Shown here: in pieces, positions 1 through 17,625 of the stretch
Numbering within the stretch: the first letter of the stretch is position 1
How the letters are laid out: each line of letters starts with the position of its first letter
From: a virus
Strand: one strand, 5' to 3'
IMG/VR virus record: IMGVR_UViG_3300045988_101864
Span: 1-17,625 of that record
DNA: 17,625 nt
The notes under the pieces: model-generated
The model's input: only the letters and a program-made list of their open reading frames with translations
Database searches by the model: none
What the model was told of the DNA's origin: nothing
Program-made: the position numbers and the translations under genes

Positions 1-32
1 AAAAAGTGTTTATACGGTACATTATGGGATTT
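1..32. repeat. Left inverted terminal repeat (ITR), candidate protein-primed replication origin
   Basis: Bases 1-32 (aaaaagtgtttatacggtacattatgggattt) equal the reverse complement of 17594-17625, with one mismatch (C15 vs A17611). The end begins with a run of five A, as needed for sliding-back initiation in TP-primed phages. Confidence 0.9.
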
Positions 33-74: not shown

Positions 75-90
75 GCAAAAATAGAATCAA
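62..90 (-). promoter_or_regulatory. Possible outward-facing (leftward) promoter: TTGATT-17-TATTAT with TG extension
   Basis: On the minus strand the -35 TTGATT is at 90-85 and TGaTATTAT at 70-62, with a 17-bp spacer. The match is weaker than the plus-strand promoters and the context is AT-rich. Confidence 0.3.
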
Positions 91-95
91 ATTTA

Positions 96-104
96 TGGTA
101 TAAA
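96..104 (+). promoter_or_regulatory. Extended -10 element TGgTATAAA inside the recurring ATTTATGGTATAA motif
   Basis: The 13-mer atttatggtataa (91-103) recurs at 13951-13963, upstream of the portal gene. No -35 element is present. Confidence 0.3.
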
Positions 105-108
105 ATAC

Positions 109-3101: not shown

Positions 3102-3359
3102 ATGTCAGTATTATACAACAAGATTCAGAGAACCATTAATACTACAATTGTAAATGTATTGGTGTTTGATGATGATACGAACAACACTCGTGAAGTATCA
3201 ACAGTATTCAGCAACAAATTGAAAGCGGATAAAGTCATGAGTGAGTTTAGTAAAATGGGATATAAACCAATTAAGGTATTATCTCTATCTTATGGTAAAG
3301 AATACTATGAAATGGAGTTAGATACATTTATTAAATATGCTAAAAAAGTAGAAATGTAA
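3102..3359 (+). CDS. Possible phi29 p6-like double-stranded DNA-binding (origin/histone-like) protein (85 aa)
   Basis: The CDS itself is solid (GGAGGGGAGG SD). The function call rests on two things. Its position directly upstream of SSB-TP-pol matches phi29 gene 6. A hand alignment to my recollection of phi29 p6 pairs TINTTIVNV with TKTTVNV and IKVLSLSYGKEYYEMELDTFIKYA with VQVVSVEPNTEVYELPVEKFLEVA. Not verified by search. Confidence 0.45.
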   Translation: MSVLYNKIQRTINTTIVNVLVFDDDTNNTREVSTVFSNKLKADKVMSEFSKMGYKPIKVLSLSYGKEYYEMELDTFIKYAKKVEM

Positions 3360-3375: not shown

Positions 3376-3717
3376 ATGATGAACAAATTATTTTTAGAAG
3401 GAAGATTGACAAAGGACCCTTATGTAAACGAAAAGGGTACAGTGGTTATGTTTACATTGGCACAGGACACTGGTTACAAGGATAAGAAAGGGAACAAAAT
3501 TACTAATTTTGTCAGCCTAAAAGCCTTTGGAGAAGGTTTAGTCAAGGTCATTGGTGACTACTGCTTAAAAGGTGATTTAATTTCAGTAGAGGCGCATGCT
3601 ACGACTGAAAACAACAATGGTGATTATTCAATCGCATTGATTGTTGACAGTATGCACTTCTTAACAAAATATGAGCAGAAGGACGAAGAACCGAAGCCAA
3701 AATCAAGAAGAAGATAA
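3376..3717 (+). CDS. ssb: Single-stranded DNA-binding protein, bacterial OB-fold type (113 aa)
   Basis: N-terminus KLFLEGRLTKDP matches the canonical SSB start (B. subtilis RVVLVGRLTKDP), followed by an OB-fold pattern (FTLA...F..L.AFG...CLKGDLISVE). AAGGAGG SD. The C-terminus is basic (KPKSRRR), not the acidic DDDIPF-type tip. Confidence 0.75.
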   Translation: MMNKLFLEGRLTKDPYVNEKGTVVMFTLAQDTGYKDKKGNKITNFVSLKAFGEGLVKVIGDYCLKGDLISVEAHATTENNNGDYSIALIVDSMHFLTKYEQKDEEPKPKSRRR

Positions 3718-3791: not shown

Positions 3792-4586
3792 ATGGCAAAA
3801 AGAAAGACGATAAACATAAAGAAAGTAAAGCTAATACGACCAGCATATAGACCACCTCAAAAGATAGTCAATGCTTTTGCAAACCCTTTAGGAGTAAGGC
3901 CAGAAGAAGTTAAAGTTGATGTCAAGAAGAAACGTAAACACAAAAGGTCTGTTAAAATTGAAGCACCTAAAATAAGTCACAAGCCAAAGAAAACAATATC
4001 ATTGACAAGGTCCAAGGGTGGAAAGCTTGAGTTAAAGACAAAGCAGAAACGCACTAGAATCAGTGTTAAGAAAGTAAAGCCAAAATCAACACGTATCGGA
4101 AGAAAACAGAGAATCAGAAGAAAGCCAGTAAAGGAAGTCTCTAATTTCCCTTTAGCAAAAGAACCAACGATAGCGACTGGAATTGAAGATGTAGAAGATA
4201 TTGAATTATCTGATGAATACATTGACTGGTCGAGTGCTAAACAGAGTGCGATTGATAGATTATACAGTGCATTGCATTTAATGGCTGATGAAAACCCAGA
4301 AGCAAGTTCTAAGGAGCTTGCACATATAGGTGCTGATTATGTAGTCAACTATTTAAAAGATACTTTCATTGATTATGATGAAGACACACTGGCAGAGTTT
4401 CTATTGTCATATCCACTGGCAGACTTTTTTGACAGTTATGTATTGTTCTATGGTGGACTTGGTCTAGTAACTGGTGACACAAGTCAACTGTACAAACTAG
4501 AAGACCAATTGGCTAGATATGCAGATAATCTAAGCTATAATTATAAAAAAGATTTAGCGAACAGCGACAGATTGGACGATATTTAG
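3792..4586 (+). CDS. Terminal protein (phi29 gp3 analogue; 264 aa)
   Basis: Lies immediately upstream of the protein-primed polymerase (2-nt gap) and is close in size to phi29 TP (266 aa). The N-terminal half is extremely basic. The acidic C-terminal domain contains ADFFDSY, resembling the phi29 priming-loop EEFDS(232)E as I recall it. Confidence 0.7.
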   Translation: MAKRKTINIKKVKLIRPAYRPPQKIVNAFANPLGVRPEEVKVDVKKKRKHKRSVKIEAPKISHKPKKTISLTRSKGGKLELKTKQKRTRISVKKVKPKSTRIGRKQRIRRKPVKEVSNFPLAKEPTIATGIEDVEDIELSDEYIDWSSAKQSAIDRLYSALHLMADENPEASSKELAHIGADYVVNYLKDTFIDYDEDTLAEFLLSYPLADFFDSYVLFYGGLGLVTGDTSQLYKLEDQLARYADNLSYNYKKDLANSDRLDDI

Positions 4587-4588
4587 GC

Positions 4589-6529
4589 ATGGCTAGAAAA
4601 AGAAAGAAGAAAATACTGGTAGGTGACTTTGAAACCACTGTATACAAAGGTCAGCAGGATACCCAAGTATGGGCCAGTGCAGTAGTTGAACTGTATACAG
4701 AGGACGCAAAAGTTTTCCATTCGATCGAAGCTACATGGGAATATCTGATAAGTTTAAAATCAGATGTTCTCATCTATTATCATAATCTTGGGTTTGATGG
4801 TACATTCTGGTTATGCTATTTGTTAGGAAAGCTGAAATTGAAGCAGGCATATGAGGATTTGTCTACAATGGACGAGTTCAAAGTCAAATGGATTCCAAAC
4901 GAGGATATGCCAGATGGAAGTATCAAGTACAGTATATCTAACATGGGTAAGTATTATTCCATCACTTGTTTTGTGAAAGGACATTACATTGAGTTTAGAG
5001 ACAGTCTAAAACTTCTTCCTTTCTCTGTATCTGAAATTGGAAAAGCATTCAAGACAAAGCATCAAAAATTGGCAATGGAATACGAAGGGTTCAGGTACCC
5101 TAACTGTTTCATTTCAGATGAAGAAAAGGAATATATTAAGAATGATGTTTACGTGGTAAAGGAAGCACTTGAATTTATGTTTGAACAGAAACACGATTCC
5201 ATGACGATTGGTACGTGCTGTATGAAAGAGTTCAAGCATACCTATGACAAGTGGACTTACGAAGAAATGTTCCCAGATTTAAAAGCGATAGAACTGGATG
5301 AAGATAAGTTTGGTTCAAAGGATGTAGATGAATATATTAGAAGGTCCTATCGAGGTGGATGGTGCTACGTTGTAAAAGGATGCGAGAACAGAATTTTTAA
5401 AAAAGGATGTGTATGCGATGTAAACAGTTTATACCCTTCCGTTATGCACTCATCATCTGGTAATGCATATCCTATTGGTCAGCCATTGTTCTGGAAAGGA
5501 AATTTCATACACCCAGAAGCATTGAGGGACAATATGTATTATTTCGTGCGTATTAAAACCAGATTCAAATTGAAAAAAGGTATGCTTCCATTTATTCAGA
5601 TAAAGAACAGTGGAATGTACAAGTCCAATGAATATCTGGAAACGAGTGACTTTAAAATCAATGGAAAATATTATAAAGGGTATATTGACAAGGACGGAAA
5701 CAAGGTAGATGCAAGGCCTACCCTTACATTGACCATGACGGATTATGCACTCTTTAGAAAACACTATGATGTAAAGGACTTTGAAATTCTGGATGGGTGT
5801 TACTTTGAATCTAGAGCAGGTATCTTTGATGACTATATCAATCCTTGGCGAGACTTGAAAATGAAGTCTACTGGAGCCATGCGACAACTGGCAAAACTTT
5901 TCTTGAACAATCTTTACGGTAAAATGGCTACGAACTCATGTTCAAGTTTTAAAGTAGTCAATATCATTGATGGCAAGATTGACTATGACTTGGTGATTGA
6001 GTTTGAAAAGAAGACTGGATATATTGCTTGTGGAAGTGCCATTACCAGTTATGCCAAAAACTTTACTATCACAAATGCTCAGAACAATTTTACAGGTAGT
6101 GTCAATCCAAAGTTTGTATATGCGGATACAGATAGTATTCACTGTATGTGTTCTCGTGAAGAACTTGTGGGTGTTAGAATACATCCAACAGACTTCAACG
6201 CTTGGAAGTGTGAAAGCTATTTTGATGAAGCCGTGTATGTGAGACAGAAAACCTATATAGAGCATATTACACATGAGGATGAAGTACCTTGTGAACCTCA
6301 TTATGATATCAAGTGTGCTGGCATGGGGAAGAGGTGCAAGGAACTGATGAATATATCTTTAAGTGGTGGGGAAGTGCCTACGGATGCAGATGAAAAAGAA
6401 AAAGAGTTCTTGCAGACAAGAAGAACTCTAAAGGATTTCAAGGTAGGATTGAAAGTTCCAAGTAATTTAAAACCTCATCGTATTGAGGGTGGTATTCTGT
6501 TAGAAAAATTTGACTATGTTATGAGATAA
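4589..6529 (+). CDS. Protein-primed family-B DNA polymerase (phi29 gp2 homologue; 646 aa)
   Basis: All hallmark motifs are present: ExoI DFETT, ExoII YYHNLGFDG, ExoIII YIKNDVYVV, motif A DVNSLYPSVM, motif B KLFLNNLYGKMA, motif C YADTDSIH, RQKTYIE, and KCAGMG. Confidence 0.97.
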   Translation: MARKRKKKILVGDFETTVYKGQQDTQVWASAVVELYTEDAKVFHSIEATWEYLISLKSDVLIYYHNLGFDGTFWLCYLLGKLKLKQAYEDLSTMDEFKVKWIPNEDMPDGSIKYSISNMGKYYSITCFVKGHYIEFRDSLKLLPFSVSEIGKAFKTKHQKLAMEYEGFRYPNCFISDEEKEYIKNDVYVVKEALEFMFEQKHDSMTIGTCCMKEFKHTYDKWTYEEMFPDLKAIELDEDKFGSKDVDEYIRRSYRGGWCYVVKGCENRIFKKGCVCDVNSLYPSVMHSSSGNAYPIGQPLFWKGNFIHPEALRDNMYYFVRIKTRFKLKKGMLPFIQIKNSGMYKSNEYLETSDFKINGKYYKGYIDKDGNKVDARPTLTLTMTDYALFRKHYDVKDFEILDGCYFESRAGIFDDYINPWRDLKMKSTGAMRQLAKLFLNNLYGKMATNSCSSFKVVNIIDGKIDYDLVIEFEKKTGYIACGSAITSYAKNFTITNAQNNFTGSVNPKFVYADTDSIHCMCSREELVGVRIHPTDFNAWKCESYFDEAVYVRQKTYIEHITHEDEVPCEPHYDIKCAGMGKRCKELMNISLSGGEVPTDADEKEKEFLQTRRTLKDFKVGLKVPSNLKPHRIEGGILLEKFDYVMR

Positions 6530-6538
6530 TGTTATACT
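6510..6538 (+). promoter_or_regulatory. Promoter TTGACT-17-TATACT with TG extension, spanning the polymerase stop codon
   Basis: -35 at 6510-6515, TG at 6530-6531, -10 at 6533-6538. It points into a 260-bp ORF-free region. Confidence 0.65.
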
Positions 6539-6544
6539 ATAAGT

Positions 6545-6790
6545 GTGTTGATTGTAGCTTTAACACGCATAGACTCTTTCTTTAAAAATCGTACTGTAAG
6601 GCCCAGTGTTCCACGTGAAACATTGGGTCTTACACATTATGGTATTGCCAGACGTACTCATTCATGAGGTGAAAATTGTGGGTCTCTTCACTTGGAAAAC
6701 AGTGCCACACACCTAGTCGAAGTAAGATATCGCATGGTCTTGAGTTGTCTGTAACAATATAAAAGGTACTCTAATGAGTACCTTTTTTAT
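6545..6790 (+). ncRNA. Candidate prohead/packaging RNA (pRNA) or other structured ncRNA (about 245 nt; ends approximate)
   Basis: This is the longest non-coding stretch in a densely coded genome. It has its own promoter and ends at a strong terminator. It contains a 15-bp hairpin (6596-6610 / 6619-6633, two G-U pairs) with loop CCACGUGA, plus further helices at 6545-6567 and 6677-6709. It lies downstream of pol in the direction of transcription, as pRNA does in phi29. Confidence 0.5.
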
Positions 6791-6793
6791 TTT
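6761..6793. terminator. Bidirectional intrinsic terminator between the convergent pol/ncRNA and ATPase units
   Basis: 11-bp stem aaaaggtactc/gagtacctttt with loop taat. Flanked by an A-run upstream and ttttttatttt downstream, so a U-tract follows the stem on either strand. Confidence 0.85.
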
Positions 6794-7871
6794 ATCCATA
6801 TGACAATGCAGTCATAAGGCATTCTTTACAGTTCAAATCTTTGAAACGGAACAGTCCGCAGTCATACATTGTTCTAAGTTTCTGAATAATAAACGTGTTG
6901 CTTCTAAGAAGACGATAATTTATCTGGTGGTCTGAGTTTGTTACAGCCAGTTTGAATGGGGAAGTCTTGTCATAGGATGTGGAGCAATAGTAATAACCTT
7001 CTTCCATATAATCAAATATACCATAGTTCACATTATTGAATTTCAATGTACATACATAGGCACACTTACCACTTGGCTTATCGACAAAGGATTTATCATC
7101 ACGAAGATATATACCTTCACTGGAGTATTCAACATACGCATTATTTGAAAAAGCTTGATTGAATCCAGATTCTTTTTGGCATTCACTAGCACTTTCATTG
7201 AAGCCTTGTTCCAAGACCCATCCTACACCACGTAGGAATTTAGTATTCCACTGCAATCGTTTGATTAAGGAGTACGGAGTACCACTTCCAAGTGCTAGAT
7301 AGTATGGATTCAGTAATGTGACTGGGTTGGATATCATATAGACTGGTACATACCGGACTTGCTTACCGCCACCACGCGCCACGGAAGTATGGATAGATAT
7401 GAACTTTGTTATTTCATCTGGAGCATACTTGTTAGTTTCAGACTGAAACTCATCGAAGATGATACACGTTGCATCAGCTAGAAAGTGGGAATACTTTTTA
7501 ACTTGGTCCGCCTTGTTCAAGGCGATAGCATAACCGCAAGATTTCTTTTCGGTCTGTTCACCTTGATATACCATTAATTCATAGATAGTCCCACCAGCTC
7601 GTTTTTCCGTAAACATAGAACAGTTTGGGAAAAACAGATCTCGTATTTCCTTAAAGAATCTATCACCTATATTAGGAAGTTCGTAGTCAAATCTTGTAAG
7701 GATGATGAACTTTTCTTTTTTCTTTAGCCATTTTTTAAATGCATATCTATTGAAGAATGTTGTTTTTCCAGCAGAACGGTTTGAAGTACAGATGAATATT
7801 TCTGGGGTATTCCCATTGATATCTTTCATACCCATGATTTTAGTCCCATCATAGAATTTATTTTCACTCAT
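6792..7871 (-). CDS. DNA encapsidation (packaging) ATPase, phi29 gp16 homologue (359 aa)
   Basis: Walker A NRSAGKTT and Walker B CIIFDEF (phi29 TIVFDEF). N-terminal ENKFYDGTKIMGM resembles phi29 KSLFYNPQKMLSY. ATG 7871 is preferred; the track start at 7880 is a GTG only 2 nt from the SD. Confidence 0.93.
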   Translation of the reverse strand: MSENKFYDGTKIMGMKDINGNTPEIFICTSNRSAGKTTFFNRYAFKKWLKKKEKFIILTRFDYELPNIGDRFFKEIRDLFFPNCSMFTEKRAGGTIYELMVYQGEQTEKKSCGYAIALNKADQVKKYSHFLADATCIIFDEFQSETNKYAPDEITKFISIHTSVARGGGKQVRYVPVYMISNPVTLLNPYYLALGSGTPYSLIKRLQWNTKFLRGVGWVLEQGFNESASECQKESGFNQAFSNNAYVEYSSEGIYLRDDKSFVDKPSGKCAYVCTLKFNNVNYGIFDYMEEGYYYCSTSYDKTSPFKLAVTNSDHQINYRLLRSNTFIIQKLRTMYDCGLFRFKDLNCKECLMTALSYG

Positions 7872-7895
7872 AAATTTCACTACCTTTCTACTATA

Positions 7896-12199: not shown

Positions 12200-13846
12200 A
12201 TGGCTTATGTTATTCCAAACAGTACAGTTGTGCTTTTAAAGAATATTTCATTAACACCAAACTATGAAAATACAGTGGATTATGATAATGCTACGGCTCA
12301 GTATAATGATATGTACGCTCATAAACTAGCTCAATGGGATAGATGTACGTATGTTGGAAAGAACAAACAACAAGGTACTATCAGATTAGAATCTACGCAA
12401 GGATTGCTTATGCAACAAGCTACGTATATGATGTTTAAGAATACGAACTATGAAAACAAATGGTTCTATGCTTTCGTTACAGATGTAACATGGGTAAATA
12501 ATGTAACATGGGAAGTTTCCTTCATTCTGGATGTTATGCAGACTTATTATTTTGATTTTACGTATGAAAAATGCTTTATTGAACGTGCCCACACAAAAGA
12601 TACTGCTATAGGATCAAACATTGTTGATGAAAAATTAGATACTGGAGAATATATTGTAAACTATCAAAATGATATAACTCAATTTACAGATTTAGTTGGT
12701 ACTGTATGTTGCACTTTAAAACCAACTGGGGAAGAACAAGACAGTTTCGTCACTTCACAAATTGATAAAACAAATGTTGCAGGCAGTATTTATGCTTTTG
12801 GTACATTGGCAGAATATCAAGAATTTTTTGTGAAAGCCACTGACAGTAACCCAGACGATACTATCATTGATACATATATGCTACCGAGATTCTTTGCGAC
12901 TGGTGGAGATCCAACTGGAATACATAGAGTACATGGAGATTGTGAACACGTACAAGTTGAATTTGATAAACCACAAAATCATACGGATGGTTCACTGAGT
13001 GGGTATATCCCAAAAAATAAAAAATTATATACGTATCCATATTGCTATATGAGACTAACCACTTTTAGTGGAAACTCAACAGAATTGAGATATGAAGATT
13101 TTAAAAATGATAAATGCCGTTTTGATATCAGTATGACAAGAACTCCAAACCCAGAAGGCTATGTGTACCCTACATATTATAAAGGATTAGTGGATAACAA
13201 GGATGAAGGTATTAGTATTAATAACTTCCCAAAGTGCGCATTCACTATTGATACTTATAAAGCTTGGCTGGCTCAGACGGCTAACTCAAGAACCATTCAA
13301 GCGTTAAGTGTAGCTGGCCAAATTGGTATGGGTATTGCTGGTTCTTTGGCACTAGGTGGTGCTGGTGGAGGTGCAGTACTGGCAGGTGCAGAAGGCGGAG
13401 CATTACTGGCCCAGAGTGAAGCTACAAATGCTATATCAATGGGTAACAACGCACTAGGAAATCTTAACAAAGCATTCAGTATGATAGCCCAAGATAGAGA
13501 TATGGCTGTAAAAGGCCAAAGAGCAGTTGGAAATGTAAACACAAGTTGGATGAGTGCAAACAATGAGAATACGATTCATGTACAATGTCTTTGTGCTAAA
13601 CCAAGCAGTTTAAGAATCATTGATGATTATTTTGAAAAATATGGGTATGCATTACATACATTATCTATGCCAGTAATTAAAAATAGACCACATTGGAACT
13701 ATATAAAAACTGTTGGATGTGATGTAAAAGCTAGTTTACCAGCATCGTTAGTAGAACAGATAAATTCTATTCATGATAACGGAATCACCTTCTGGAAAAA
13801 TCTTGACTCGGTTGGTAATTATAGCCTGGACAACAGACCAGTTTAA
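12200..13846 (+). CDS. Tail knob protein (phi29 gp9 homologue; 548 aa)
   Basis: YMMFKNTNYENKWFYAFVTDV aligns with phi29 YIMFQNADYGNKWFYAFVTEL. C-terminal IHDNGITFWKNLDSVGNYSLDN aligns with IFDNGITLWHTDNIGNYSVEN. An internal Gly/Ala-rich hydrophobic loop is present. Confidence 0.93.
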   Translation: MAYVIPNSTVVLLKNISLTPNYENTVDYDNATAQYNDMYAHKLAQWDRCTYVGKNKQQGTIRLESTQGLLMQQATYMMFKNTNYENKWFYAFVTDVTWVNNVTWEVSFILDVMQTYYFDFTYEKCFIERAHTKDTAIGSNIVDEKLDTGEYIVNYQNDITQFTDLVGTVCCTLKPTGEEQDSFVTSQIDKTNVAGSIYAFGTLAEYQEFFVKATDSNPDDTIIDTYMLPRFFATGGDPTGIHRVHGDCEHVQVEFDKPQNHTDGSLSGYIPKNKKLYTYPYCYMRLTTFSGNSTELRYEDFKNDKCRFDISMTRTPNPEGYVYPTYYKGLVDNKDEGISINNFPKCAFTIDTYKAWLAQTANSRTIQALSVAGQIGMGIAGSLALGGAGGGAVLAGAEGGALLAQSEATNAISMGNNALGNLNKAFSMIAQDRDMAVKGQRAVGNVNTSWMSANNENTIHVQCLCAKPSSLRIIDDYFEKYGYALHTLSMPVIKNRPHWNYIKTVGCDVKASLPASLVEQINSIHDNGITFWKNLDSVGNYSLDNRPV

Positions 13847-13855
13847 TGTTATAAT
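13827..13855 (+). promoter_or_regulatory. Promoter TGGACA-17-TATAAT with TG extension, spanning the knob stop codon
   Basis: -35 at 13827-13832, TG at 13847-13848, -10 at 13850-13855. It shares TAATGTTATA with the promoter at 6527-6536. Confidence 0.6.
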
Positions 13856-13861
13856 AAATAT

Positions 13862-13948
13862 GTTCCTAATGAATAGGTCCTCCTATTACTCATTTCAGTC
13901 TTGATTTACTAGCTAAAGGTGGTACGTTTTATGCGTATCACTTTTAGT
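13862..13948 (+). ncRNA. Candidate small RNA or structured leader (about 85 nt) between a promoter and a terminator-like hairpin
   Basis: Hairpin 1 spans 13868-13894: aatgaatagg/cctatt(act)catt with a C-rich apex UCCUCC. Hairpin 2 spans 13915-13945 as a 12-bp stem with two G-U pairs. No credible ORF. A separate promoter for the portal gene follows. Confidence 0.35.
13915..13948 (+). terminator. Terminator-like hairpin upstream of the portal promoter
   Basis: aaaggtggtacg/cgtatcactttt with loop ttttatg. The A-run before it and the T-run at its 3' end form part of the stem. Confidence 0.4.
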
Positions 13949-13955
13949 CTATTTA

Positions 13956-15650: not shown

Positions 15651-16850
15651 ATGCCTATTAATCACAATACTTACAAATCTCTTTATCCTTTTAGAGCTTG
15701 GGTACAACAGACATTACCTTCTATTTATGACGATTCATTATCATATACAGATTTATTAGCTAAAATGCTAAGTTATATGAATGAATTGATTACAAATAAT
15801 AATTTATTACAAGATGATATTAAAAAGGCCTTCGACTATATCAACAACTATTTTCTAGACTTAAATATTCAAGAAAATATTGATAAAAAACTAGATGAAA
15901 TGGCTAAAGATGGTACTTTGGAAAAGATTATTAATGAAGAATTGTTTGGAAATCTTGAAAATAATCTTAACAATTTAACTCTTGCTACTACTCAAAACAG
16001 TAAGTTCATGTGTCCTTTATTCTTTGATACAGATGAAAGACAATCTGAGCAATATATTGCAGGATATATCAAACTAGCAAGAAAATTAGGATTTGGAAGT
16101 TGTCAGATGTTGGCCCACATTGACAATGGAGTTGTTACGCAGAAACCAAACACGTTTGTTTGGGCTAATAAATATGCCACAATGTATAATGTTCCTATCA
16201 CTTCATTAAAAGTGCATGGTACAGTGGACAGTAACTATATAAGTACGGCATTACCTTTATTAGATTATTTCCCTAATTTAAAAACTGTGTTCATTATCAA
16301 TGAACAGTTTGCAGATGTAAAAAATCATACATACTTTGCAGTTAAAATTAAGGAAAAGAACAACAAATTAAAAGTTGGAATTACTGCTGATACAGGTCAA
16401 TGCTTCTGGAATTCCCCAAGTATTTCACCATCAGACATGGCTATTATTGAAAATAACTTTGATATTCTAGGGGTAAACTTCTATCCTTCATGTAATAACT
16501 TTTATTCAAGTGATTTAAACCCAGATAAGATGCAGGCTAAAATCAACAGTCAAGTTCTGACTTTGCCTTGGAACAAAGAAATCTGGGTTACAGAATGTGG
16601 GGTATTGCCTTACGATCAGTTCTTGTGCCAACCTTGGCAGTATGATTTTACTAAGATTACAAATAAAACTAAAAATACATATGCTCAATATTTGTTTTAT
16701 TCATGTTGCTTTAATCACCCAGTATTAAAAAATGCTGAAATTGTTGTACCTTGGTTTTTTGAAAACTGGTATGATACAAATGATACAGAATTTCTTAATA
16801 AAATGAAAAACTTAATTTTAGGAGGTAACTCAAATGTCGAAGTTATGTAA
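15651..16850 (+). CDS. Tail appendage / receptor-binding protein with a putative clan GH-A-like (TIM-barrel) glycosidase domain (399 aa)
   Basis: Occupies the position of phi29 gene 12. The N-terminal YDDSLSYTDLLAKML..MNELI motif is common in Firmicute phage tail-fibre N-termini. The C-terminal part has FIINEQ (candidate acid/base NE) and IWVTECG (candidate nucleophile Glu). The enzymatic assignment is tentative. Confidence 0.55.
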   Translation: MPINHNTYKSLYPFRAWVQQTLPSIYDDSLSYTDLLAKMLSYMNELITNNNLLQDDIKKAFDYINNYFLDLNIQENIDKKLDEMAKDGTLEKIINEELFGNLENNLNNLTLATTQNSKFMCPLFFDTDERQSEQYIAGYIKLARKLGFGSCQMLAHIDNGVVTQKPNTFVWANKYATMYNVPITSLKVHGTVDSNYISTALPLLDYFPNLKTVFIINEQFADVKNHTYFAVKIKEKNNKLKVGITADTGQCFWNSPSISPSDMAIIENNFDILGVNFYPSCNNFYSSDLNPDKMQAKINSQVLTLPWNKEIWVTECGVLPYDQFLCQPWQYDFTKITNKTKNTYAQYLFYSCCFNHPVLKNAEIVVPWFFENWYDTNDTEFLNKMKNLILGGNSNVEVM

Positions 16851-17493
16851 TTTATATAAAAATGCTCCACAAGGTATGGTAAAGTTTTTGGAAATTGAAT
16901 ATAATTCACCAGTTAAAAATCAAAATCAATACGCAGACCATACACTTATAATTCATTTACGTAGAGACAGTATTTATAAACTAGACAGATATCACGAATT
17001 AATGATATCTGTCAGCAGTTATGGTGTTATAGCATTTAGTGACTGTTCTTATTTTGCATATATTGATGATGGTCATACATTAAGCTTGTTATTTAAAAAC
17101 AATGCTTTAAATCATAACTTATCTATTGAAGTTGAAGGTAATGACATTGGAAATGTTAAATTTACGGAATTAAGTACACCTACTGGTTATACTGCTATTA
17201 TTCCTTTTATGACCACTCAACCATCCAAAAATATATTTGGTTATATTTCTAAAACACCTACTGTGTATTTTCTATCTGCTAATAACCATATATTCCTTGC
17301 TTGCTTATCTTATAGTAGCTATGTTGTTGGTGAACAACATGGTGGTAAACAATGTATGCTACATGGTGACGCAAATTATCAACTAACAAATCTTTCAATA
17401 GAATTAGTAAAAACAATTCAAGAAGATGGTACTGATACAATATATATTTATAAGGTGACTGCTGGTGCAAACGAACAAGTTATCTTATGGTAA
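16834..17493 (+). CDS. Hypothetical tail-end protein, possible second receptor-binding or accessory protein (219 aa)
   Basis: GGAGG at 16821-16825, 8 nt upstream. Overlaps the appendage gene by 17 nt. The sequence looks beta-rich and no family was recognised. Confidence 0.7.
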   Translation: MSKLCNLYKNAPQGMVKFLEIEYNSPVKNQNQYADHTLIIHLRRDSIYKLDRYHELMISVSSYGVIAFSDCSYFAYIDDGHTLSLLFKNNALNHNLSIEVEGNDIGNVKFTELSTPTGYTAIIPFMTTQPSKNIFGYISKTPTVYFLSANNHIFLACLSYSSYVVGEQHGGKQCMLHGDANYQLTNLSIELVKTIQEDGTDTIYIYKVTAGANEQVILW

Positions 17494-17497
17494 AAAT

Positions 17498-17524
17498 AGA
17501 GTCTAGAAATAGGCTCTTATTTTA
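17498..17524 (+). terminator. Intrinsic terminator after the last gene
   Basis: 7-bp stem agagtct/aggctct (one G-U pair) with loop agaaat, followed by tatttta. Confidence 0.6.
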
Positions 17525-17528
17525 TACC

Positions 17529-17557
17529 TTGACATTAATTCTATTTTATGATATACT
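17529..17557 (+). promoter_or_regulatory. Near-consensus promoter TTGACA-17-TATACT with TG extension, pointing outward toward the right terminus
   Basis: TTGACA at 17529-17534, TG at 17549-17550, TATACT at 17552-17557. Only about 62 nt of template remain downstream. Confidence 0.65.
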
Positions 17558-17593
17558 AAGTGTAAAGGTGAGGACGTAAACTTGGGATATGCT

Positions 17594-17625
17594 AAATCCC
17601 ATAATGTACCATATAAACACTTTTT
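17594..17625. repeat. Right inverted terminal repeat
   Basis: Reverse complement of 1-32 with one mismatch (A17611). Confidence 0.9.

Follow-up and report, generated by a model that had tools for sequence, protein, structure and literature searches.

The DNA analysed here is the whole 17,625-nt stretch (hereafter the window) of IMG/VR virus record IMGVR_UViG_3300045988_101864, which looks like the complete genome of a protein-primed, phi29-like podophage from a clade of gut phages; our subject is a promoter that lies near its right end and points outward, off the terminus. We find that this site matches the consensus of a host sigma-A-type promoter, with a -35 hexamer and an extended -10 element, beyond what chance would provide, and that it is kept in all twelve right ends recovered from its clade. 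To judge from the pattern of conservation, it is a real, selectively maintained promoter and very probably functional. We propose, with confidence evenly balanced between acceptance and doubt, that transcription from the terminal promoter into the right replication origin acts in cis, and that its product is a short non-coding run-off RNA.

A consensus promoter directed off the right end

On rechecking, the coordinates given in the initial annotation for the promoter, for the Shine-Dalgarno (SD)-like tract that follows it and for the TTG codon with its reading frame all hold (Table 1), and the promoter does follow the last gene and its terminator; 68 bp separate the end of the -10 hexamer from the right terminus. 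The T-run of the terminator hairpin merges into an A/T-rich stretch 5' of the -35. The claim that the site is one of the four best promoter matches of the genome was nearly right: it shares second rank at 11/12 with sites at 109 and 13827 on the plus strand and at 212 on the minus strand, and two further sites, at 206 and 671, score 12/12. Three of the 11/12 matches, that at 17529 included, carry the extended -10 TG, and a perfect -35 is present at four plus-strand sites, 17529 again among them. The site thus shows what is expected of sigma-70/sigma-A recognition, namely a -35 near TTGACA, a spacer of 17 +/- 1 bp and a TAnnnT -10 preceded by TG.

A first-order Markov simulation using the dinucleotide transitions of the window predicts 0.97 sites scoring 11/12 or better over the two strands of the 17.6 kb, against six observed; for such matches with TG the expectation is 0.05, against three observed. 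On the outward strand of the 132-nt tail, 0.004-0.006 matches would be expected, and about 0.0002 with TG. This is a post hoc test with a large margin; the terminal match is not due to chance.

The promoters at 109, 6510 and 17529 have a common build, with a -35 of TTGAC(A/T), 17 bp of spacer and TGnTATACT, whereas the sites that precede the genes for holin, capsid and connector and the 15651 gene consist of an extended -10 only (TATGnTATAAT), without a -35. Because the -35 at 17529 is perfect, as in the left-end early promoters 109, 206 and 671 and unlike the extended -10-only late sites, we infer that the right-end site belongs to the early class that would need the host polymerase only.

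Conservation among related right ends

Relatives were gathered through the last gene, the DNA polymerase, the connector and the ITR (inverted terminal repeat) pattern, and their polymerases are 82-98% identical. Twelve related right ends that reach at least the -35 were counted, eight of them full-length to within a few nucleotides (contigs 134435, 143138, 101401, 128492, 154145 and 139322, plus L048 and L067) and four incomplete: L046 lacks its last nucleotide, and 091730, 137423 and L066 break off earlier. L050 was left out of the count, since it stops exactly where the -35 should start. In the subclade with 82-83% polymerase identity, contigs 106433, 3300029338_000036 and ERZ26858497 likewise end no further than the -35. 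Covering at least six samples, the twelve derive from IMG/VR sample 3300045988 and from ENA assemblies ERZ27297478, ERZ28596148, ERZ28644842, ERZ15609725 and ERZ779643. A scan of IMG/VR for the ITR pattern gave no match with the full 32-mer and five loci with the inner 21-mer; a metagenome scan returned nothing beyond a duplicate of one contig, a pattern scan of genome contigs for a clue to the host gave no match, and a distant blastn of the right end gave A/T-rich noise only.

The promoter is present in all twelve ends. Its -35 is TTGACA in eleven and TTGATA in one (identity 0.96), its spacer measures 17 bp in each of the eleven ends that extend to the -10, and the TG is found in ten of the eleven that reach it. 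The -10 reads TATACT, TAAGAT or TATTAT, so that T1, A2 and T6 are invariant and variation is limited to positions 3-5. The spacer itself is less constrained, with a pairwise identity among nine ends of 63% over its first 9 nt and 88% over its last 8 nt. Since the hexamers, the TG and the spacing are kept while the sequence of the spacer drifts, the ends appear to have been under selection for recognition by a sigma-70-family factor and not merely to have been retained in general. This is the pattern that selection for sigma-A recognition predicts, and it bears out the initial annotation in treating the site as promoter-grade. The last gene and its terminator upstream are replaced by different ones among the relatives, the hairpin being different too, and the conserved right-terminal module measures about 108 bp, with its boundary at TTTTnTACC, just 5' of the -35.

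The same pattern fits poorly with the suggestion in the initial annotation that the site is a relic. It might be the promoter of a former terminal prohead RNA (pRNA) gene or right-end early operon like those of phi29, Cp-1 or asccphi28, still active and functionless after the unit was lost or moved. Its position and type do match those of the pRNA promoters of relatives; moreover, a structured RNA elsewhere in the genome (6545-6790) shares the AAGTGT start region and has a promoter of similar build, and the -10 and discriminator of the terminal site resemble those of that promoter at 6510-6538 (TGTTATACTATAAGTGT vs TGATATACTAAGTGT). A functionless site should decay, however, and here the sigma-factor contacts have persisted in 12/12 ends across recombination of both the upstream gene and the outer terminus, together with 17 nt downstream. 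We regard a remnant as improbable.

The right terminus and the predicted transcript

The right terminus is genuine, as is indicated by the 32-nt ITR and by independent contigs of relatives that end 0-7 nt from the same point. These contigs, from the IMG/VR sample and several of the ENA assemblies, share the terminal ...GTACCGTATAAACACTTTT, and the inner part of the right ITR (AAATCMCATAATGTACC) has a pairwise identity of 99% over nine full-length ends. The initial annotation had set against itself the case of a genome that reaches past 17625 with a gene downstream; a comparison with the relatives' ends revealed no such continuation.

Individual contigs depart from the common picture. In L067 (ERZ15609725 NODE_2541, last 30 nt) the outermost 17 nt of the right terminus differ, with ...CATAATGCACGTAAAGGGCAGGGG in place of ...CATAATGTACCGTATAAACACTTTTT, yet the promoter, the first 17 transcribed nucleotides and the inner part of the ITR are retained, which suggests an exchange of terminal origin sequence within the clade. 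Contig IMGVR_UViG_3300045988_143138 (L006/L041, last 37 nt) continues past the terminus as a fold-back after ...AAACACTT. The added sequence repeats the promoter region in reverse complement, and the join falls at 6 nt of microhomology (ACACTT/AAGTGT); we rejected it as a real extension, since the microhomology, which is missing in half of the clade, explains the join, and it is probably a snap-back artefact of library preparation, assembly or replication. Contig IMGVR_UViG_3300045988_099134 (74,921 nt; L017/L038) opens with the left ITR and early region of this phage; its matches to the window end at window position 15913, and the stretch retrieved (L038, contig positions 10025-20975) holds no right-end module and no information on a right-end junction. 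This contig is probably a chimeric assembly.

No terminator was found 3' of the terminal promoter in the window. Given the true terminus, the run-off RNA of about 62 nt that the initial annotation had envisaged as a copy of the right ITR would then be the only possible product. Its predicted start lies 6 nt after the -10 in ends of the TATACT type and 7 nt after it in those of the TAAGAT and TATTAT types; the position of AAAGG is constant because a 1-nt indel in the discriminator compensates between the promoter types. The RNA would be laid out as a conserved 5' segment, 13 variable nucleotides and the ITR copy with a U5 end. Mean pairwise identity is 79% over the first 17 transcribed nucleotides (AAAGGnGAGGACGTnGA) vs 69% over the next 13. 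A polypurine tract AAAGGnGAGGA occupies +1 to +11 in nine of the ten ends that reach so far (L046, L067 and eight full-length ends), with no conserved start codon, and is degraded in contig 139322 (AGAAGTAGTGA). The segment 17564-17580 is a candidate 5' stabiliser of the STAB-SD type, or else a DNA element.

The initial annotation had read the SD-like tract and the TTG after it as a possible coding unit. The TTG stands 7 nt 3' of the tract, within the 5-10 nt expected between an SD and a start, and its frame runs for 14 codons plus 2 nt to 17625 (LGYAKSHNVPYKHF) without meeting a stop codon. If it were translated to the end of this non-stop mRNA, a peptide would result, or ribosomes would stall and engage transfer-messenger RNA (tmRNA). 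The frame is open in L067 also, despite the different terminus, and two substitutions among the closest relatives are synonymous. These changes are only apparently of the coding kind, because the 3' part of the frame is the ITR, which is constrained by replication. The TTG itself has become TAA in L046 and TGA in L048, and stops interrupt the frame in contigs 139322 (TAA at codon 3) and 128492 (TAG at codon 11), while in the window no stop closes it. Translation of the frame is accordingly very improbable, and on this comparison of relatives the TTG frame is not a gene.

Nor does the RNA resemble a structured species. Taken alone, the run-off RNA of the window folds at -12 kcal/mol (z = -1.6); no conserved fold was detected among the relatives, for which the consensus reaches -1.0 kcal/mol with 0 compensatory pairs in an alignment where the missing ends of incomplete contigs were, by assumption, filled with T. 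A 5'/3' panhandle and a GGGAT/ATCCC hairpin in the window's RNA were rejected, as neither is retained in relatives. An Rfam search of the window at E up to 10 gave no match, and no antisense target was seen within the genome, where the longest complement is 10 nt, as in shuffles. A literature search found no paper on run-off transcription at a phage terminus.

The inner inverted repeat and the left end

Besides the ITRs, the two ends share an inner inverted-repeat block, placed at equal distance from each terminus (Table 1). The right block spans an UP-like TATTTTATACC, the -35 and most of the spacer; the left block has ATAAAT where the right copy has TTGACA, hence there is no outward promoter on that side. 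A GGTAnAAAA core is kept about 97-105 nt from both ends in the relatives. Presumably an origin protein, for example the p6-like double-stranded DNA-binding protein (DBP), binds or nucleates on the block. Because the left copy lacks the hexamers, they are not part of a symmetric replication element.

It may be argued from this overlap that the site is kept as DNA, as an origin or packaging signal bound by the p6-like DBP or by the complex of terminal protein and polymerase, and that its likeness to a promoter is incidental. In a variant of this idea, the likeness matters only in that RNA polymerase is retained at the site as an auxiliary or architectural component of the origin, comparable to NFI and Oct-1 in the adenovirus ITR. 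The equidistant inverted block, the movement of the whole terminal stretch of about 108 bp as one module and the conserved host-factor-like palindrome at the left end (56-73) are in keeping with it. It is less easily reconciled with the conservation of exactly what a sigma-70-family factor needs (-35, 17-bp spacing, TG, TAnnnT) while the spacer and -10 positions 3-5 drift, or with the absence of the hexamers from the left block. We consider a purely DNA-based role rather unlikely.

The left-end palindrome is a perfect TTGTGA-N6-TCACAA, a CRP/FNR-type site, 56-73 nt from the left terminus. In the three other available left ends its half-sites are retained and the N6 varies, and a host factor may bind there, next to the left origin or the early promoter. 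A left-end outward promoter, TTGATT-17-TGa-TATTAT, was seen in the window only and was rejected, because its '-10' coincides with the variable N6 of the palindrome conserved in the relatives; a second outward match at the left (212 to 183) was rejected as a by-product of the palindromic -35 of promoter 206.

At the right end a further candidate overlaps the outward promoter on the opposite strand. The functional promoter would then be the inward minus-strand TTTACA-17-TAGAAT (17566 to 17538), which would make RNA antisense to the late genes. It scores 10/12 in the window and 11/12 in contig 134435, but is restricted to the TATACT subgroup: in four relatives that retain the outward promoter the best minus-strand site reaches only 8/12, and neither a minus-strand open reading frame (ORF) nor a terminator lies downstream. 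We find this alternative scarcely credible.

Possible role of the outward transcription

What could be the purpose of a strong promoter with so little DNA left to transcribe? In the cis model, host RNA polymerase would initiate at about 17564 and leave the template at its protein-capped end, given that there is no terminator and 62 bp of DNA are left. Outward transcription would use the minus strand as its template and leave unpaired the plus-strand 3' end that serves as template when protein-primed initiation occurs at this terminus, and each passage of the polymerase would open terminal base pairs. RNA polymerase seated 40-110 bp from the end would also compete with origin proteins. In this manner early outward transcription into the right origin would act in cis until the accumulating p6-like DBP occupied 17518-17547, the mirror of 78-107, and, by overlapping the -35 and spacer, shut the promoter off.

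That the opening of the end is a limiting step is plausible because the phi29 origin becomes up to 30-fold stronger on unpairing of about 6 terminal nucleotides (PMC4150772). A precedent for the predicted silencing is the right-end promoter C2 of phi29, which is annotated as p6-repressed. It is for these reasons, namely the freeing of the plus-strand 3' end, the effect of unpairing in phi29, the p6-like silencing expected over the -35 and the C2 precedent, that we favour action in cis.

Several considerations weigh against the cis model. The clade is shallow, so the conservation described above partly reflects shared ancestry, and the right-end promoter was not found in the two more distant relatives with usable ends, CS229P2 and L052 (the right end of L052 is marked by an Illumina adapter). 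The transcription start at about 17564 is itself read from the sequence. The left origin has no conserved outward promoter, which shows that an origin of this phage can work without one and limits any claim of necessity. A polymerase running head-on 40-110 bp from the origin could equally inhibit or delay initiation at the right end. Lastly, the model leaves the conserved SD-like first 17 transcribed nucleotides unexplained, and these point to the RNA itself or to a DNA site.

The main rival to action in cis is accordingly that the effector is the RNA and not the act of transcription. An abundant and stable RNA of about 62 nt, whose SD-like 5' end would bind 30S subunits and block 5'-exonuclease in the STAB-SD manner, could serve as an origin mimic or decoy for the complex of terminal protein and polymerase, could pair with displaced strand ends or could mark the right end for packaging. 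The last 32 nt of such an RNA would match the 3' end of either template strand exactly and be complementary to either protein-linked 5' end. Consistent with a role of the RNA, +1 to +17 is better conserved than the next 13 nt and SD-like in most relatives without a conserved start codon, and STAB-SD elements are known to stabilise Gram-positive RNAs without directing translation (PMC4113751); the phage also has other conserved small non-coding units (6545-6790 and 13847-13950). Set against this are the lack of conserved structure, covariation, Rfam match or above-chance antisense target noted above, the degraded tract in 139322 and the want of a protecting 3' hairpin. We regard an RNA effector as possible, if on balance unlikely.

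A more specific form of the RNA-based explanation is that the run-off product is a ribosome-protected 'telomere-copy' RNA of about 60 nt, bearing the exact 3'-terminal sequence of both template strands and acting on protein-primed replication or on the choice of ends. It could be a decoy or co-factor for the terminal protein-polymerase complex, could pair with the protein-linked 5' ends of displaced strands or could help to distinguish right from left in packaging. This suggestion is doubtful; if true, it would describe a bacterial-virus counterpart of the transcripts that run from subtelomeric promoters into chromosome ends.

Genome context and other elements

The genome follows a phi29-like plan (Table 1). 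After the packaging ATPase gene, the plus strand encodes a holin, lysins, a phi29-type capsid protein, a tail knob and a connector, with Pfam assignments taken from near-identical relatives. A search of phage records found no record nearly identical to the window; its nearest named relatives are the Clostridium symbiosum phages CS229P1-3, alongside phages from human faeces, with polymerase identities of about 51-54%.

Table 1. Coordinates of the window's features, followed by outward terminal promoters of reference phages
Feature	Position	Strand	Description
Left ITR	1-32		97% complementary to 17594-17625
Left copy of inner inverted block	78-107		Directly upstream of inward early promoter 109-137
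Candidate p6-like dsDNA-binding protein gene	3102-3359	+	85-aa product; phrog_6370 'dsDNA binding protein', E 5.7e-7
SSB gene	3376-3717		PF00436
Putative terminal protein gene	3792-4586		Assigned by position only
Family-B DNA polymerase gene	4589-6529		
Promoter TTGACT-17-TGt-TATACT	6510-6538		At end of polymerase gene
Structured ORF-free RNA unit	6545-6790		About 245 nt, GC-richer; adjoins packaging ATPase gene
Bidirectional terminator of this unit	6761-6786		
Packaging ATPase gene	6792-7880	-	
Last long ORF (last gene)	16834-17493		Precedes terminal promoter
Terminator-like hairpin of last gene	17498-17517	+	8-bp stem, 3 GC pairs, tail TATTTTATAC
Inner inverted-repeat block	17518-17547		30 nt, 83% complementary to partner 78-107
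-35 hexamer	17529-17534	+	TTGACA
Spacer	17535-17551	+	17 nt, with extended -10 TG at 17549-17550
-10 hexamer	17552-17557	+	TATACT (TGaTATACT in window)
Predicted run-off transcript	17564-17625	+	About 62 nt; start placed at first A of AAAGG
Conserved 5' segment	17564-17580	+	AAAGGTGAGGACGTAAA; SD-like polypurine tract
SD-like tract	17564-17574	+	AAAGGTGAGGA
Variable segment	17581-17593	+	TTG at 17582-17584; five variants in nine ends
Right ITR	17594-17625		32 nt, 97% inverted match to 1-32; replication origin of terminal-protein-primed genome
phi29 outward promoter A1	-10 ends 327 nt from terminus		12/12 + TG; drives pRNA
Nf outward promoter A1	-10 ends 297 nt from terminus		12/12 + TG; drives pRNA
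Cp-1 outward promoter	-10 ends 149 nt from terminus		12/12 + TG; both ITRs; annotated -35/-10 signals
asccphi28 outward promoter	-10 ends 372 nt from terminus		12/12 + TG; both ITRs; P1/T1 and P8/T4; terminator

The RNA unit at 6545-6790 is likely a new structured non-coding RNA. Its identity across the relatives is 87-99%, its consensus fold reaches -73 kcal/mol and eight compensatory pairs support it, two of them in the terminator stem; it has no Rfam match. On these grounds it would be a likelier candidate for an analogue of pRNA than the terminal RNA of about 62 nt. A palindrome, (ATG)TTTCACGTGAAACAT, forms the apical part of its long hairpin (TGTTCCACGTGAAACA) at 6607-6622. The palindrome recurs in the window at 2582-2597, in L050 and L001, and in the left leaders of L015, L017, L020, L021, L028 and L029; it may act as a self-complementary loop or as the operator of a phage regulator.

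A second small non-coding unit occupies 13827-13950, between the tail-knob and connector genes. Its extended -10 promoter AATGnTATAAT (13847-13855), conserved in 14/14 relatives examined, is followed by about 75-90 nt of conserved sequence with an anti-SD-like GGTCCTCC, and a terminator hairpin (13912-13948) lies directly 5' of the connector's own promoter.

Near the left end, two 83-nt copies of a complete early expression cassette, 92% identical, stand at 184-266 and 649-731 and precede two different early genes; both contain a 12/12 promoter whose -35 region is palindromic (TTGACAAAAAGTCAA), a common leader and SD, and an ATG. The early leader of some relatives contains a hammerhead-ribozyme motif (CUGAUGAG...CGAAAC...GUC, with closing stem CTAGCC/GGCTAG), located at 237-295 in L017 and found also in the left early regions of L013, L022, L027 and L029; against Rfam RF00163 it scores 25.9 bits (E 0.0012), below the gathering score of 34. 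The motif is absent from the window.

Significance

Protein-primed phages are a model for replication that starts at the ends of a genome, and they are the source of the phi29 polymerase tools. It is only partly understood how such phages open their two origins, set their timing and distinguish one from the other. The clade described here keeps a strong host promoter aimed through one of the origins, with no room for a gene behind it, which makes the 29-bp element a small and clean test case for whether protein-primed initiation or the choice of ends is influenced by transcription or by a terminal RNA. The finding indicates that the type of outward terminal promoter known from phi29, Nf, Cp-1 and asccphi28 need not be coupled to a product of pRNA size, which implies that a function at the terminus may reside in the promoter itself. 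Should the promoter prove dispensable, it would caution that a consensus promoter can be conserved without having a product.

Comparison with known systems

The outward strand of the terminal 450 nt was scanned in ten reference genomes. Perfect matches with TG were found in phi29, Nf, Cp-1 and asccphi28 (Table 1), matches of 10/12 only in phiCPV4 and CS229P2, and no outward promoter at 10/12 or better in GA-1, Av-1, 44AHJD and C1. An outward consensus promoter as the last unit before the terminus is therefore, as far as these genomes go, a recurrent feature among phi29 relatives, and its product is pRNA where it has been studied. The initial annotation called a unit so close to a terminus unusual: outward promoters at the terminus are known from these four phages, and it is the short distance to the end that remains unusual. 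Its parallel with phi29, in which promoter A1 at one end reads outward to make pRNA, is borne out by the phi29 annotation.

[quoted passage not shown] Unlike it, they drive a structured pRNA that ends more than 100 nt before the terminus; the pRNA of phi29 measures 174 nt, of which 120 nt suffice (PMC11476376), and that of Nf is annotated at 120-290. The terminal unit of the window shares with pRNA genes the early outward promoter at the terminus, but only about 62 nt are left to transcribe, no fold, covariation or Rfam match supports a pRNA, and the transcript must run off through the ITR.

In Streptococcus phage Cp-1 a perfect consensus promoter with TG likewise faces the end, and no gene or terminator is annotated beyond it; a run-off RNA is to be expected there too. 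Its annotated -35 and -10 signals lie at 172-177 and 150-155 on the minus strand and at 19166-19171 and 19188-19193 on the plus strand. They fall inside a 236-bp ITR and thus occur at both ends, with a transcript of about 143 nt, whereas the window has its promoter only at the right end, outside the 32-bp ITR, with about 62 nt to be transcribed. The Cp-1 genome paper by Martin and co-workers from 1996 reportedly proposed a small pRNA-like RNA; our Rfam search of Cp-1, asccphi28 and Av-1 retrieved nothing pRNA-like. In Lactococcus phage asccphi28, also phi29-like, the outward promoter again lies in the terminal region; its putative units differ from that of the window in lying within 577-bp ITRs at both ends, in measuring about 300 nt and in having an annotated terminator 23 nt from the terminus.

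Like C2 of phi29, Nf and GA-1, the promoter of the window is a strong early sigma-A-type site no more than about 160 bp from the right terminus; C2 lies in the region where the origin-activating DBP assembles. The window has a candidate p6-like gene of its own, and by analogy we propose p6-type binding over the promoter. C2, however, reads inward into early genes (17, 16.x), while the promoter of the window reads outward and serves no genes.

The 5' end of the predicted RNA recalls the STAB-SD elements of Gram-positive bacteria, which stabilise RNA by binding 30S subunits and thereby blocking RNase J1 (PMC4113751). It would carry an SD-like polypurine tract with no conserved start codon after it, which makes a stabiliser of this kind a lead; the known examples, in contrast, stabilise long mRNAs, and the tract is weak in one relative of the window.

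Activation of an origin by transcription is familiar from the phage lambda ori and from the phi1.1A/B promoters at the primary origin of T7, and the adenovirus ITR recruits the host factors NFI and Oct-1. To our knowledge, no origin-activating role of transcription is documented for protein-primed phages. By analogy with these systems, host transcription machinery placed beside the origin of the window may help to open or organise it through transcription or factor binding, with the difference that none of them involves run-off at a protein-capped end 60 nt away. Terminal outward promoters of phi29-like phages were known before; the present case differs in scale and asymmetry, since the promoter occurs at a single end and lies outside the ITR, its transcript would be only about 62 nt long, and no conserved fold was detected in that predicted product.

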